Sequence record: OR906198.1 | DNA length: 64,000 nt | Origin: Escherichia phage BP32 | Reading direction: 5' to 3' (one strand) | Shown here: positions 29,052 to 63,953 of the stretch, piece by piece | How positions within the stretch are numbered: the stretch's first letter is position 1 | Layout of the letters: every line of letters starts with the position of its first letter | The notes under the pieces: generated by a model | Database searches by the model: none | What the model saw: the letters and a program-made list of their open reading frames with translations, nothing else | Told to the model about the DNA's origin: nothing | Position numbers and translations under genes: made by a program

Positions 29052-32192
<3,141 letters not shown>

Positions 32193-55015: not shown

Positions 55016-55102
55016 GCGAGAATGGTCAAATTGGTAAAGGCACAGCACTTAAAATGCTGCGGAATGATTTCCTTGTGGGTTCGAGTCCCACTTCTCGCAC
55101 CA
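55016..55102 (+). tRNA. tRNA-Leu (anticodon TAA), type II, CCA encoded
   Basis: Acceptor GCGAGAA/TTCTCGC; anticodon stem CAGCA/TGCTG, loop CTTAAAA; long variable arm; T-loop TTCGAGT. Confidence 0.85.
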
Positions 55103-55107
55103 AATTT

Positions 55108-55181
<74 letters not shown>

Positions 55182-55191
55182 ATTTAATTTA

Positions 55192-55265
55192 CTCCGTGTA
55201 GCTCAGTTTGGTAGAGCGCCTGATTTGGGATCAGGAGGTCCAAGGTTCAAATCCTTGTATGGAGA
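55192..55265 (+). tRNA. tRNA-Pro (anticodon TGG), no encoded CCA
   Basis: Acceptor CTCCGTG/TATGGAG; anticodon loop TTTGGGA; T-loop TTCAAAT; only 2 nt before tRNA-Ser. Confidence 0.8.
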
Positions 55266-55267
55266 CT

Positions 55268-55352
55268 GGAGGCGTGGCAGAGTGGTTTAATGCACCGGTC
55301 TTGAAAACCGGCAGTCGCTCCGGCGACTCATAGGTTCAAATCCTATCGCCTC
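55268..55352 (+). tRNA. tRNA-Ser (anticodon TGA), type II, no encoded CCA
   Basis: Acceptor GGAGGCG/CGCCTCC; anticodon stem CCGGT/ACCGG, loop CTTGAAA; long variable arm. Confidence 0.85.
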
Positions 55353-55359
55353 CGTAATT

Positions 55360-55437
55360 TCGCTGATTTAGCTCAGTAGGTAGAGCAACTCACTTGTAAT
55401 GAGAAGGTCGGCGGTTCGATTCCGTCAATCAGCACCA
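55360..55437 (+). tRNA. tRNA-Thr (anticodon TGT), CCA encoded
   Basis: Acceptor GCTGATT/AATCAGC; anticodon loop CTTGTAA; T-loop TTCGATT. Confidence 0.8.
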
Positions 55438-55438
55438 A

Positions 55439-55515
55439 GGCCCTGTAGCTCAATGGTTAGCAGCAGTCCCCTCATAAGGGAAAGGTTACCAGTTCAAATC
55501 TGGTCTGGGTCACCA
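55439..55515 (+). tRNA. tRNA with CAT anticodon (Ile-lysidine type or Met), CCA encoded
   Basis: Acceptor GGCCCTG/CTGGGTC with one mismatch; anticodon loop CTCATAA; T-loop TTCAAAT; the T4 tRNA at this position is annotated Ile. Confidence 0.7.
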
Positions 55516-55524
55516 AATTAATTA

Positions 55525-55611
55525 GGGGAGTTATCCCGTAGAGGTAGCGGTGTGGACTGTAAATCCATTGTCATTGCGACTCGGGTGGTTCGACTCCACC
55601 ACTCCCCACCA
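55525..55611 (+). tRNA. tRNA-Tyr (anticodon GTA), type II, CCA encoded
   Basis: Acceptor GGGGAGT/ACTCCCC; anticodon stem GTGGA/TCCAT, loop CTGTAAA; long variable arm; T-arm GGTGG-TTCGACT-CCACC. Confidence 0.7.
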
Positions 55612-55657
55612 ATTTATGACTCGTCGTGAGACGCTCAGTTCTTTATTAGGGACTGAT

Positions 55658-56323
55658 ATGCATTTTTATCTTTATAAAATAACAAATAAAATTAATAATA
55701 AAATTTATATTGGTGTGCATTCTACCGAAAATTTAGATGATGGATATATGGGTTCTGGTAAATTATTAAAAAGAGCCCAAGATAAGTATGGTATAGAAAA
55801 TTTTTCTAAAGAAATATTAGAGTATTTTGATGATAAAGAATCTATGCTTGAAGCCGAGAAAAATATTGTCACAGAAGAGTTTTTAAATAGACCAGATGTG
55901 TATAATTTAAAACTTGGCGGTGAAGGTGGATGGGACCATATAAATATTCCTGGGATGCTAAACCAGAAGAAAGATGCTAGCTTAAAAGGAGCTAAATCGT
56001 TTAAATCACGTTTTGAAAATGATATTTTACTTCAAGAAAAATATCGTAAAATTGGTTCAAATGTATTTAAACGTTTGTGGTCAACTCCTGAATACAAGGA
56101 AAAATTTTTAAATAATAGCAGATTTTTAAATAAGCATCATACTCCTGAAACTATTAATAAAATGAAAGAAATTCACGCTAAAAATAATCATCAGAAAGGA
56201 GAAAAGAATTCCCAATTTGGTATGATGTGGATTCATTCATTAGATGAAAAAGTTTCTAAACGTATTAAGAAAACTGACCCAATTCCAGAAGGATGGTTTA
56301 AAGGTCGAAAAATGAAATTTTAA
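55658..56323 (+). CDS. segB: GIY-YIG homing endonuclease (SegB-like) inside the tRNA cluster
   Basis: N-terminal GIY-YIG module YLYKITNKINNKIYIGVHS...GYMGSGKLL; start placed at the ATG (55658) after tRNA-Tyr, not the track's 55550 which overlaps the tRNA. Confidence 0.75.
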   Translation: MHFYLYKITNKINNKIYIGVHSTENLDDGYMGSGKLLKRAQDKYGIENFSKEILEYFDDKESMLEAEKNIVTEEFLNRPDVYNLKLGGEGGWDHINIPGMLNQKKDASLKGAKSFKSRFENDILLQEKYRKIGSNVFKRLWSTPEYKEKFLNNSRFLNKHHTPETINKMKEIHAKNNHQKGEKNSQFGMMWIHSLDEKVSKRIKKTDPIPEGWFKGRKMKF

Positions 56324-56326
56324 TTA

Positions 56327-56402
56327 CGGGGCATAGCTCAGAAGGAAGAGCAAGGACCTTCTAAGTCCTAGGTCGTAGGTTCGATCCCTACTGCCTCGAC
56401 CA
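56327..56402 (+). tRNA. tRNA-Arg (anticodon TCT), CCA encoded
   Basis: Acceptor CGGGGCA/TGCCTCG; anticodon stem AGGAC/GTCCT, loop CTTCTAA; T-loop TTCGATC. Confidence 0.85.
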
Positions 56403-61660: not shown

Positions 61661-62077
61661 ATGACTCGTATTAATTTGACTTTAGTATCTGAACTTGCTG
61701 ATCAACATTTAATCGCAGAATACCGTGAATTGCCACGCGTTTTTGGTATAGTTCGTAAACACGTGGCAAATGGTAAGCGGGTTAAAGATTTTAAAATATC
61801 TTCCGAGTTTATTTTAGGTTCTGGTCATGTTACGTTCTTTTACGACAAGTTAGAATTTTTGCGAAAGCGTCAATCAGACATTATAATGGAATGCTTAAAA
61901 CGTGGGTTTAGTATAAAAGATACTGAAGTTCCTGACATCAGCGATATTCCAGCAGAATGGAAAAATGATTATAATCCATGCAAATCAGCTATTAAATTGA
62001 GTCAACAACGACTCGATAAAAAAATTTTAATGAAGCCACACTGGTACAAGTATTACGGCAAAAATATTTACATTTAA
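61661..62077 (+). CDS. denV: endonuclease V (pyrimidine dimer DNA glycosylase)
   Basis: 138 aa; N-terminus [17 protein letters not shown]...[10 protein letters not shown] matches T4 endonuclease V as recalled. Confidence 0.93.
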
Positions 62078-62086
62078 AGGAAACAT

Positions 62087-62560
62087 ATGAAAACATATCA
62101 AGAATTTATCACTGAAGCAGCTATTAATTCTCAAATTATTGCTGAATCTTTTACTGATCTTTTGAAATTTAAAAAAGGTCAAAAAATCACTGCTGTATTG
62201 GATGATGGTACAGAAGTTGAGATGGATGTACAGGGATATAATTATGCAGTAGATGGAAAACTGTATAATAAATCCCATGCTAAATTTGATTCATTTGACG
62301 ACTTTGTTAATACAGTTGAAGATGAAAAAACTCGTAGATCAATTTCAACTGGTGATGCTAAGGTTCTTATGGCACACGGTCATGAACGTATTCGCGCTAA
62401 ACAGAATAAAATGGGTGAAGATAATTTCGCATTAGTTGGTTATCAATCTGGTAAACAAACTTATGGCTATCAGCGTACTGCTACCATGTATAATAAAAAT
62501 GGTAAAATCGCTTTCGTGAATAGTAAAGGTTCTATTCAGTACGTCAAATCATTCAAATAA
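62087..62560 (+). CDS. internal protein (ipII/ipIII-type) with capsid targeting sequence
   Basis: N-terminus MKTYQEFITEA matches the T4 capsid targeting sequence consensus MKTYQEFIAE; 157 aa, basic. Confidence 0.65.
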   Translation: MKTYQEFITEAAINSQIIAESFTDLLKFKKGQKITAVLDDGTEVEMDVQGYNYAVDGKLYNKSHAKFDSFDDFVNTVEDEKTRRSISTGDAKVLMAHGHERIRAKQNKMGEDNFALVGYQSGKQTYGYQRTATMYNKNGKIAFVNSKGSIQYVKSFK

Positions 62561-62713
62561 GCAAATAAGAAATATGGGAACAAGCTGGACCTCATGATTC
62601 TATGAGGGATTCCCGCCAACCTGTAATAAGGTCGAGCCCAAGTGCGGTAATGGGTAAATACAGAAATGGACAATTCACGCGCCATGGAATGGCCCAAATT
62701 TAGAGAGAATAAA

Positions 62714-63256
62714 ATGAGAACATTTTTAACTGGTCCTTATCTATCCCTGATGAATGCTTTTACACACCATTCTGATGCTAGAGTAGAAGAAATTTGTAAT
62801 AGTGGATTTTATGTACCTGATTCGCCACATTTATTTAAAGAATACTGCACACTTCGACTAGATGGTGGACGTCAATCCGGTAAATCAACTGCAGTAACTA
62901 ATTTTGCCGCTAATTGGTTGTATGACGGTGGAACAGTTATTGTTCTTTCTAATACTTCAGCTTACGCTAAAATTTCTGCGGGCCACATTAAAAAAGAATT
63001 TTCACGCTATTCTAATGATGATATTCGATTCCGTTTATTTACTGATTCTGTCCGTAGTTTTGTTGGTAATAGAGGTAGCAAGTTCAGAGGTTTATCGCTT
63101 TCGCGGATTTTGTATATAATCGATGAGCCTGTTAAATCTCCTGATATGGATAAAATTTACGATATTCATATTGAAACTGTGCACCACTGTTGCAATAGTA
63201 AATGCTGCATTGGTGGTATTACTCGTCCACAGTTTTTCATAATCGGAATGCAATGA
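62714..63256 (+). CDS. small P-loop NTPase of unknown function
   Basis: Walker A GGRQSGKST and Walker B ILYIIDEP; start placed at the ATG with RBS AGAGAGAA (the track starts earlier at 62666). Confidence 0.5.
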   Translation: MRTFLTGPYLSLMNAFTHHSDARVEEICNSGFYVPDSPHLFKEYCTLRLDGGRQSGKSTAVTNFAANWLYDGGTVIVLSNTSAYAKISAGHIKKEFSRYSNDDIRFRLFTDSVRSFVGNRGSKFRGLSLSRILYIIDEPVKSPDMDKIYDIHIETVHHCCNSKCCIGGITRPQFFIIGMQ

Positions 63257-63582
63257 TGACAGACACGCAACTTTTCGAATATCTTTATTTTTCGCCAAAA
63301 ACTATTAAAAATAAATTGGTGAATCATTTTGAAATTTTGGCAAATAACAACGTCTTGAGCGAATTTTATCCTAAGCAATACAAATTACAAAAAGGCGTAT
63401 TCAAAGGATGCAGAGTTTTGTGCACTGCTCCTAATGCAAGATTAATGAATAAAATTCCATATTTTACCATGGAATTTATTGATGGACCTTTTAAAGGACT
63501 AATCACCCAAAGTTTAATGGCATATGATTCTGAGCCATTTTTAATTAAAGAGCAATCTTGGATAAATTTATTTTCTAATTGA
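63253..63582 (+). CDS. hypothetical protein (about 109 aa)
   Basis: ORF starting at the ATGATG overlapping the previous stop; the track gives an earlier start at 63202. Confidence 0.4.
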
Positions 63583-63953
63583 GAGGTTATATGAAAGCAT
63601 ATCAAATTCTTGAAGGCACGCATAAAGGTACTATTTATTTTGAAGACGGTATTCAAGCACGAATTATTGTCTCTAAAACTTTTAAAGAGGACTCTTTTGT
63701 AGACCCAGAAATTTTCTATGGTTTGCATGCCCGTGAAATTGAAATTGAAACACAGCCTACAGTTAAAATTGAGGGTGGTCAACACCTGAACGTAAACGTT
63801 CTGCGTCGTGAAACTCTGGAAGATGCAGTTAAGCATCCGGAAAAATATCCGCAGCTGACCATCCGTGTATCCGGTTATGCAGTTCGCTTTAACTCTCTGA
63901 CTCCGGAACAGCAGCGCGACGTTATCGCTCGTACCTTTACTGAGAGTCTATAA
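63579..63953 (+). CDS. autonomous glycyl radical cofactor (GrcA/YfiD-like; T4 Y06I-type)
   Basis: C-terminal 60 aa [56 protein letters not shown] carry the glycyl-radical motif RVSGYAVRF and match E. coli GrcA as recalled. Confidence 0.85.

Follow-up and report, generated by a model that had tools for sequence, protein, structure and literature searches.

A putative single-domain P-loop NTPase encoded by vs.8 of a T4-like phage, its overlapping neighbour vs.7 and a structured RNA upstream

The DNA analysed here (the window) is a stretch of 64,000 nucleotides (nt) of Escherichia phage BP32 (OR906198.1), a segment of a Tequatrovirus (T4-like) genome; 892 phage records match a 2-kb query taken around the open reading frame (ORF) of interest, the best of them with 96–97% identity. 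This ORF is the gene vs.8, which had been predicted from the DNA letters as a small P-loop nucleoside triphosphatase (NTPase) of about 180 amino acids (aa) and without an assigned function. The frame opens with an ATG, comprises exactly 180 codons and ends with a TGA at 63254–63256:

62714..63256, plus strand: vs.8 coding sequence (CDS), 180 aa plus stop, ortholog of T4 Vs.8, PHROG 1488

The local gene order is nudE, e, denV, an ipII-like internal-protein gene (62087–62560), a spacer of 153 nt, vs.8, vs.7 (63253–63582) and the GrcA-like gene vs.6 (63591–63953). The original prediction had placed the ORF in an early accessory block, between an internal-protein gene and a GrcA-like gene. The block is indeed the early denV-regB accessory region of a Tequatrovirus, and the upstream neighbour is as described; on the downstream side, vs.7 intervenes before vs.6. 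Although T4 is the best-studied large phage, about half of its genes are without a function, vs.8 among them.

The ORF matches PHROG 1488 ('unknown function') with an E-value of 3.3e-77, residues 3–180 aligning with profile positions 2–177 of 177, and the same PHROG is matched by 42 of the 42 homologs that we aligned. In a 96.6%-identical phage it is named 'Vs.8 conserved hypothetical protein' and is followed by Vs.7 and the GrcA-like Vs.6, while a tblastn comparison gave 87.8% identity over 180 aa to T4 Vs.8 (NP_049732.1), whose gene stands in the order denV, vs.8, vs.7, vs.6. The position 3' of denV or an internal-protein gene and directly 5' of vs.7 is common to the window, T4, NR1, HY01, Jiaodavirus, Dhakavirus, and Klebsiella and Enterobacter phages. 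Judged by its sequence, the ORF is the ortholog of T4 Vs.8, a catalogued gene without a characterised function. The earlier statement that it had no match among the well-known T4 enzymes is therefore correct for characterised enzymes but overlooked this T4 counterpart, and the profile match leads to the uncharacterised Vs.8 and not to a well-characterised T4 protein. A full-text search of the T4 literature found no main-text discussion of vs.8, the gene appearing only in supplementary tables. Homologs were detected by tblastn in 1009 phage records, and among the matches listed all were T4-like phages of enterobacteria, with Escherichia, Klebsiella, Shigella, Enterobacter, Yersinia, Salmonella, Citrobacter and Serratia as hosts. 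A word-indexed protein search returned 28 clusters of Vs.8 homologs, and an exhaustive profile search of 1.84 billion representatives recovered just 55 proteins at E ≤ 0.001, all of 42–259 aa.

To define the conserved residues, two alignments were used, one of 19 homologs (A1) and one of 42 homologs down to 21% identity (A3). The longest mechanical ORF opens at 62666 and is 196 aa long, but its 16-aa extension is unconserved, with stops or another frame upstream of vs.8 in other phages, whereas M1 of the beginning MRTFLT (consensus M(R/K)xxLT) is kept in 19/19 homologs of A1. Therefore, 62714 is the right start of vs.8. It lies upstream of the Walker A motif, so that a later start that would exclude this motif, which the prediction had considered, does not apply. 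One further feature precedes the start:

62702..62707, plus strand: AGAGAG, a purine-rich, weak candidate Shine-Dalgarno-like stretch read from the sequence, 7–12 nt before the ATG

In other genera, too, stretches of the type AAGAG or GAGA are found ahead of the conserved start. In the window, the upstream frame corresponding to that of T4 is closed by a stop and is not in frame with vs.8, and the upstream ATGs of other genera run into stops or other frames. By this comparison, the start of vs.8 in T4 (NC_000866) is 64,792, and the RefSeq start at 64,912 is 120 nt too far upstream.

Within the 180 codons the following segments were distinguished:

62864..62887, plus strand: Walker A motif or P-loop, GGRQSGKS, G51–S58, with a terminase-type Arg-Gln inside the loop; aligns with SRQLGKT of gp17, the large terminase subunit
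63053..63091, plus strand: R114 (SVRSF) and R125-G126 (FRG), candidate arginine finger or sensor; chosen by conservation, role putative
63107..63130, plus strand: Walker B strand and putative catalytic Glu, ILYIIDEP, aa 132–139 (D137, E138); aligns with gp17 MIYIDE
63182..63208, plus strand: HHCCNSKCC, aa 157–165, lineage-specific, probably a disordered loop
63230..63253, plus strand: last beta-strand and C-terminal G178-M-Q180, presumptive position of the sensor-1 or coupling motif by analogy with the ASCE topology (ASCE, additional strand, catalytic glutamate)

Both nucleotide-binding motifs of the original prediction, the Walker A GGRQSGKST and the Walker B ILYIIDEP, are conserved features of the family, which together with the PHROG assignment supports its description as a small P-loop NTPase of unassigned function. 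G52, K57 and R114 are invariant in the 42 homologs of A3, and conservation reaches at least 90% for Y9, M13, T46, R53, Q54, G56, A60, F64, R125, G126, E138, P172, G178 and Q180. In A1, no variation occurs at I135, I136, E138 and P139, and D137 is conserved to 90% or more. Nearly all members end at G178-x-Q180, the preceding strand being modelled at residues 173–177. A rough estimate predicts a few chance matches to a Walker A pattern in the ~32,000 residues of six-frame ORFs. Nevertheless, Vs.8 holds the sole canonical [AG]x4GK[ST] match among the 213 window ORFs of at least 60 aa, and since this match is also conserved throughout the family and lies within a confidently predicted alpha/beta fold, it is not due to chance.

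Some remote Vs.8-like proteins (P0056, P0059, P0065 and P0068) show R-[QR]-[ST]-G-H-[ST], in which the Walker A Lys is replaced, and no DE after the Walker B strand; they are probably degenerate, non-catalytic derivatives of the Vs.8 fold.

The same residues bear on the idea of Vs.8 as a switch or scaffold that binds NTP and, through its nucleotide state, controls a partner while performing little catalysis or none. In favour of it, the model shows a single RecA-like domain without an obvious substrate-binding module, and distant relatives that have His for the Walker A Lys and no DE still keep the fold-defining residues. In the Vs.8 clade itself, however, the invariant K57 and the nearly invariant E138, together with R114 and R125, form the pattern of a hydrolysing ASCE enzyme, and we regard a pure switch as very unlikely.

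The third motif named in the original prediction, a Cys/His cluster near the C-terminus, is present at aa 157–165 but is neither conserved nor a defining feature. Only close T4 (Tequatrovirus) relatives carry it, and homologs at ≤57% identity have lost it; its single profile match was a sub-threshold one to a conotoxin family of Pfam, and it overlaps residues 161–169, the sole segment of the structural model with a predicted local distance difference test score (pLDDT) below 50. A metal-binding site was rejected on these grounds, as the set of ligands is replaced by unrelated residues at ≤57% identity. With it falls most of the case for a metal- or iron-sulphur-binding Vs.8 that serves the GrcA-like glycyl-radical protein as an activase or repair factor. 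This explanation could draw on the presence of HHCCNSKCC and on GrcA-like genes that stand no more than two genes from vs.8-like genes in T4, L005, L009 and L011 (L numbers denote our phage contigs). Vs.8 contains no radical-SAM CxxxCxxC motif, however. Three genera keep the vs.8-vs.7 pair in the absence of vs.6, and GrcA-like genes are spread more widely than Vs.8 (1588 phage records against 1009), also into phages of 108–114 kb such as EC100, faergetype and SE7. As GrcA-like genes are so much commoner, their proximity to vs.8 is probably inherited synteny, and the proposed service function, which is extremely improbable, is largely refuted by the non-conservation of the cluster across the aligned sequences.

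GrcA-like genes were also seen near Vs.8-like genes of low identity (24–25%), at 1840–2493 in L009 and 3780–4181 in L011. The L009 product is 217 aa long, with an N-terminal extension, and is followed by an HNH-like ORF.

Searches of Pfam, NCBIfam and PADLOC profiles with Vs.8 gave nothing above threshold, and searches of PDB sequences, with the single sequence or with a profile, gave nothing significant. The AlphaFold (AF2) model (pLDDT 81.7, predicted template modelling score 0.83) opens with a long helix at the N-terminus and continues with five beta-alpha units; one more strand comes after Walker B, and with it the chain ends. Its five strands alternate with helices and its best PDB matches are ASCE domains, at template modelling (TM) scores of 0.37–0.49 and with a strand order that is not readable from the model. 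A Foldseek comparison with the PDB, a check proposed in the original prediction, returned RecA-like ASCE domains of helicases and terminases (E 4e-5 to 2e-2): the first domains of the helicases SLFN11, DSH9, RecD, RadD and T4 UvsW, and the packaging ATPases P74-26 TerL, phi28 gp11 and phi29 gp16.

This fold class also weighs on whether Vs.8 could belong to the kinase-GTPase division of P-loop proteins, as a small kinase of nucleotides or polynucleotides. Its 180 aa are a typical size for a nucleoside-monophosphate kinase, and the early regions of T4 encode several enzymes of nucleotide metabolism. The conserved Glu after the Walker B strand (hhhhDE) and the matches to helicase and terminase RecA-like domains point away from such an enzyme, as does the lack of any kinase family among the Pfam, NCBIfam and PDB sequence matches except stray ones of single members. 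We consider a kinase highly improbable.

At the sequence level, the large terminase was the sole named family that recurred. PHROG 2 (terminase large subunit) was matched by 29 of the 42 members, with a best E of 3.9e-8, and the Pfam family Terminase_6N (PF03237) by 22/42 at E < 0.1 (best E 6.8e-5), always below the gathering threshold. When the family profile was compared with all 213 window ORFs, it found just Vs.8 itself and gp17 (E 2.6e-6), matching gp17 residues 140–213 including SRQLGKT. The gp17 gene of the window (29055–30887, minus strand) encodes 610 aa; we take its Walker A motif to be residues 161–167, its Walker B motif residues 251–255 and its catalytic residue E256, with a coupling motif after the next strand. 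A weak hhalign alignment (E 0.003) superimposes the Walker A motif, the RG pair and Walker B/E256 of gp17 on those of Vs.8, with R125-G126 opposite gp17 R245-G246, 9 residues before Walker B. By these alignments, the closest relative that can be detected for Vs.8 lies in the T4-type large terminases such as gp17, in their N-terminal ATPase core. Judging from motifs and model, Vs.8 would work like a terminase/helicase-type ASCE core, from which it probably derives.

Neither parent class fits Vs.8 as it stands. A helicase of superfamily 1 or 2 (SF1/SF2) was rejected as its identity, because Vs.8 is a single domain of 180 aa and has no two tandem RecA-like domains. Likewise, Vs.8 is not a terminase, because it is without a lid and an RNase H-like nuclease domain and scores below threshold.

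GenBank nevertheless calls the ORF 'putative terminase large subunit' in some records and 'endoribonuclease RegB domain-containing protein' or 'endoribonuclease' in others. That either of these labels is right, Vs.8 being a RegB-type endoribonuclease or a genuine large terminase, is almost certainly wrong. No match to REGB_T4 (PF10715) was found in Pfam at E up to 1, the RegB label is also carried by vs.7, vs.3 and vs.1 (KF925357 (HY01), KR233165, LN881732 and others), and in relatives RegB itself is encoded by another gene, ~2 kb downstream. The RegB label looks like an annotation error that has been propagated, and we would guess that it originated in old 'regB-denV intergenic region' protein names. 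The terminase label would mirror a real but distant similarity, the true gp17, with its nuclease domain, being encoded elsewhere.

Directly downstream, vs.8 overlaps a second small gene:

63253..63582, plus strand: vs.7, 109 aa; start ATG and vs.8 stop overlap in ATGA (63253–63256)

Vs.7 matches PHROG 2049 (E 2.8e-54), and searches of Pfam and of PDB sequences gave no match. In Jiaodavirus, Dhakavirus, and Klebsiella and Enterobacter phages, where Vs.8 is 39–43% identical, a Vs.7 homolog still overlaps or abuts vs.8 by 1–4 nt; the pair is retained in five genera, and Vs.7 occurs in 929 phage records compared with 1009 for Vs.8. From this arrangement, vs.8 is predicted to be translationally coupled to vs.7, and Vs.7 is likely to be a partner protein of Vs.8. 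The Vs.7 model (pLDDT 91.2) opens with a helical hairpin that varies and is missing from short versions; a small beta-barrel around two G-P-F-K-G-like turns follows. Its best PDB fold matches are KOW/SH3-like domains (KIN17, the KOW5 domain of Spt5, ribosomal L24-type; E 0.013–0.3), which weakly suggests a fold of this kind.

According to the supplement of one study, T4 vs.8 and vs.7 are both classed as early RNA and as early protein (PMC9697503), and both proteins are therefore made.

With moderate confidence, we read Vs.8 as a free-standing, single-domain ASCE P-loop NTPase that is terminase-derived and active and that acts together with Vs.7 on a nucleic-acid or nucleoprotein target. Vs.8 retains GRQxGK[ST], hhhhDE, two conserved Arg and a polar G-x-Q tip on its last strand, and from these conserved residues of catalytic type it would bind and hydrolyse ATP. 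Since a single RecA-like domain rarely makes a complete site, Vs.8 would probably act as a homo-oligomer or in a complex with Vs.7. Vs.7 could complete the active-site cleft, of which Vs.8 lacks the second half, or provide a surface for substrate binding, and R114 or R125 could serve as arginine finger or sensor. The energy of ATP would then be spent on the nucleic-acid or nucleoprotein target, in a non-essential early step of host take-over or counter-defence.

Several observations weigh against this reading. BP32 Vs.8 scores 14.5 bits against Terminase_6N, where the Pfam cut-off is 22, and the hhalign probability for Vs.8 and gp17 is a mere 10.8%. The TM-scores of 0.37–0.49 are low and do not separate terminases from helicases, and all 55 proteins recovered by the full-library profile search are small and stand-alone, none being terminase-sized. 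Catalysis is not universal in the wider family, as remote members are without the Walker A Lys and the DE pair. As for the partner, the KOW-like match of Vs.7 is weak (best E 0.013) and without sequence-level support, and no Vs.7 was detectable beside the Vs.8-like genes of low identity (24–32%) in L008, L009, L011 and L012, where the context differs. Finally, the supplement of a CRISPRi-ART knock-down study lists both T4 vs.8 and vs.7 as 'Not Fit', that is, without a fitness defect on the laboratory host, and gives the vs.8 guides at 64,887–64,937 (PMC11879866). These guides cover the mis-annotated start; they lie within the RNA element described below and ~100 nt ahead of the conserved start. 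Because they were aimed at a false start, the result for vs.8 is not a clean test.

Dispensability on a laboratory host would also suit a counter-defence factor, in which Vs.8 with Vs.7 mimics, poisons or sequesters an immune ATPase of the host or its ligand. The gene lies in a hyperplastic early region, adjoins the variable genes of virion-packaged internal proteins and is near vs.4, which we take to encode a sponge against CBASS (cyclic-oligonucleotide-based antiphage signalling system), and its homologs, among the matches listed, are limited to T4-like phages of enterobacteria. According to one study, certain internal proteins neutralise defences of the host (PMC4122927). On the other side, no meaningful match to a defence model was found, the sole PADLOC match being PtuA at E 0.015, and the strictly conserved catalytic residues favour real turnover over mimicry alone. 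We consider this explanation plausible but unlikely; it overlaps the preferred reading of an active, terminase-derived NTPase and differs from it mainly in the target.

The spacer upstream of the corrected start contains an element of a different kind:

62574..62697, plus strand: pseudoknotted RNA element, 124 nt; covariance model R1, 93.9 bits, E 1e-20, single copy in the window

The 153-nt spacer has a G+C content of 48% in its core, compared with 36% for the window, and it is conserved at the nucleotide level between genera that share only ~40% Vs.8 protein identity. Forty copies of the element were gathered from T4-like contigs. The structure proposed for them comprises P1, a helix that closes the element, the hairpin P2, whose length varies, the invariant CCUGUAAYAAGG, a long-range helix P3 and a pseudoknot, which pairs the 5' bulge of the P1-P2 domain with the variable loop of P3; the core reads CCUGUAAYAAGGUCGAGCC..GYGCGGUAA. 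P3 is rich in G-U pairs and is thus specific to the sense strand. In a MAFFT alignment of 20 copies, 94.1% of the cells were paired, compared with 21–46% in slid controls, and the covariation was 0.146 against 0.067 in shuffled alignments. A model-based alignment of 35 distinct copies gave 91.5% paired cells (slid controls ≤47%) and a covariation of 0.249 against 0.132, and in neither alignment was the observed covariation reached by any of 500 shuffles. Five core pairs of P1 and all four pairs of the pseudoknot were changed on both sides in the model-based alignment, and as the pseudoknot is absent from the fitted model, its covariation counts are unbiased by the fitting.

A scan of Rfam 15 found no match for the element, the fold of the single sequence was no more stable than that of shuffles (z = −0.33), RNAalifold on the MAFFT alignment missed P1 and the pseudoknot, and an unconstrained helix search in each sequence was not significant compared with shuffles, so that support for the structure comes from alignment-based covariation. 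The 18-nt core was found in 18 bacterial contigs, all by chance and with no flanking similarity. PeSL promoter/stem-loop cassettes were rejected as the identity of the element, being different and smaller. Taken together, we consider the element to be a genuine structured RNA, undescribed as far as we have checked, on the strength of its comparative signal.

In T4, the 120-nt extension of the RefSeq CDS of vs.8 (64,793–64,912; L003 4294–4413, minus strand) reads through the element. In T-even phages, vs.8 has the element as its 5' leader. Elsewhere among T4-like phages, some copies lie ahead of internal-protein genes, some on either side of such a gene and some in tandem. Phages of the Klebsiella/Jiaodavirus type carry it before an internal-protein gene and once more, complete or in part, between this gene and vs.8, and one contig has two tandem copies. 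This arrangement suggests that the element marks the boundaries of swapped internal-protein cassettes, possibly via recombination. The copies concerned are as follows:

L004, 1943–2088 and 2422–2494: element copies
L005, 1808–1953 and 2347–2480: element copies
L041, 5049–5305: element copies

Shorter versions of the core, with a covarying P1 of their own, were found in Vequintavirus-like phages (L065, L067, L071, L076), in phages of ~45–47 kb (L066, L068, L074, L077) and in L070, L072 and L036; the Vequintavirus and Ivi copies scored by the covariance model are ~88 nt long. These short copies are intergenic and lie upstream of unrelated genes, among them a basic 112-aa protein with a tRNA cluster, an HNH-like gene and a 629-aa protein. 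As the core occurs in unrelated coliphage families 5' of unrelated genes, the element has a wide distribution that does not depend on vs.8, and at this locus it may matter more than the ORF.

Elsewhere in the window, the arrangement of the internal-protein genes departs from that of T4. At 61661–62560, denV is followed by the ipII-like gene and ipIII is absent, whereas T4 (L003) has the order ipIII, ipII, denV; the ipII-like product is 157 aa long, and relatives annotate its gene as ipIV. Eight tRNA genes are clustered at 55016–56399 (plus strand), corresponding to the T4-type tRNA region.

A bolder proposal joins all three elements of the locus. Vs.8 and Vs.7 would form a two-protein early module, a terminase-derived mini-ATPase with a KOW-like adaptor, that remodels a transcription, translation or RNA complex of the host or counters a defence, and the upstream RNA would be its regulatory leader or partner and at the same time a new class of structured RNA, widespread in virulent coliphages. 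As a whole we hold this combination to be quite unlikely.

That the ORF is catalogued as T4 gene vs.8 and as PHROG 1488 was already known. What this analysis adds is the correction of its start, the finding that the Cys cluster is not conserved, the probable terminase-type ancestry, the conserved pairing of Vs.8 with the weakly KOW-like Vs.7 and the neighbouring RNA element. A conserved, probably active mini-ATPase with a KOW-like partner, as suggested by alignments and models, would make of an anonymous ORF a system of two proteins that can be tested. The start correction matters in practice, as a genome-wide knock-down screen placed its vs.8 guides at the wrong start, and it revealed the 124-nt pseudoknotted RNA inside the mis-annotated coding sequence.

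Among known systems, the closest counterpart is T4 Vs.8 itself. The two phages have in common the orthologous protein, vs.7 and vs.6 downstream, denV or an internal-protein gene upstream, and the upstream RNA element. They differ in that BP32 has the ipII-like gene between denV and vs.8, whereas denV is next to vs.8 in T4, and in that the RefSeq CDS of T4 is drawn 120 nt longer (219 aa), through the RNA element, a frame that is closed in BP32 by a stop and an indel.

Stand-alone P-loop proteins of 145–175 aa from other large phages, those of PHROG 2586 and others (Proteus phiP4-3, Aeromonas Aes012, Acinetobacter 133, Pseudomonas 201phi2-1 and PhiPA3), resemble Vs.8 in size and predicted fold, with TM-scores of 0.5–0.69 and E-values of 3e-8 to 1e-3 in BFVD. 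Such anonymous proteins, including those of jumbo Pseudomonas phages, were the best matches outside the family among predicted viral structures, and PHROG 2586 is also matched by 40 of the 42 Vs.8 family members. They differ from Vs.8 in sequence (14–24% identity) and are likewise uncharacterised.

The ATPase domain of T4-type large terminases (gp17; Terminase_6N; P74-26 TerL, PDB 4ZNK) shares with Vs.8 the ASCE core, the Arg-Gln of the P-loop, the RG pair and hhhhDE, and that of P74-26 TerL was among the top fold matches (E 6.6e-4). However, the ATPase domain of gp17 comprises ~360 of its 610 aa, whereas Vs.8 has ~180 aa in all, without lid, nuclease domain or N-terminal extension; moreover, vs.8 is an early, non-essential gene, unlike the late gene of the large terminase. 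The N-terminal ATPase of phi29 gp16 (PDB 5HD9, chain of 194 aa) and phi28 gp11 (7JQP) are minimal packaging ASCE ATPases of similar size, and their fold match to Vs.8 is weak (TM 0.48/0.45, E 0.02). They act on the portal with prohead RNA, whereas nothing observed here places Vs.8 at a capsid. Finally, the top Foldseek matches (E 3.7e-5 to 1e-2) are to the first RecA-like domain of SF1/SF2 helicases, which resembles Vs.8 in the layout of the Walker A and B motifs and has, like Vs.8, a polar motif behind the next strand after Walker B. These helicases have two RecA-like domains, of which just the first aligns, while Vs.8 has one and is without motifs Ia, IV, V and VI.

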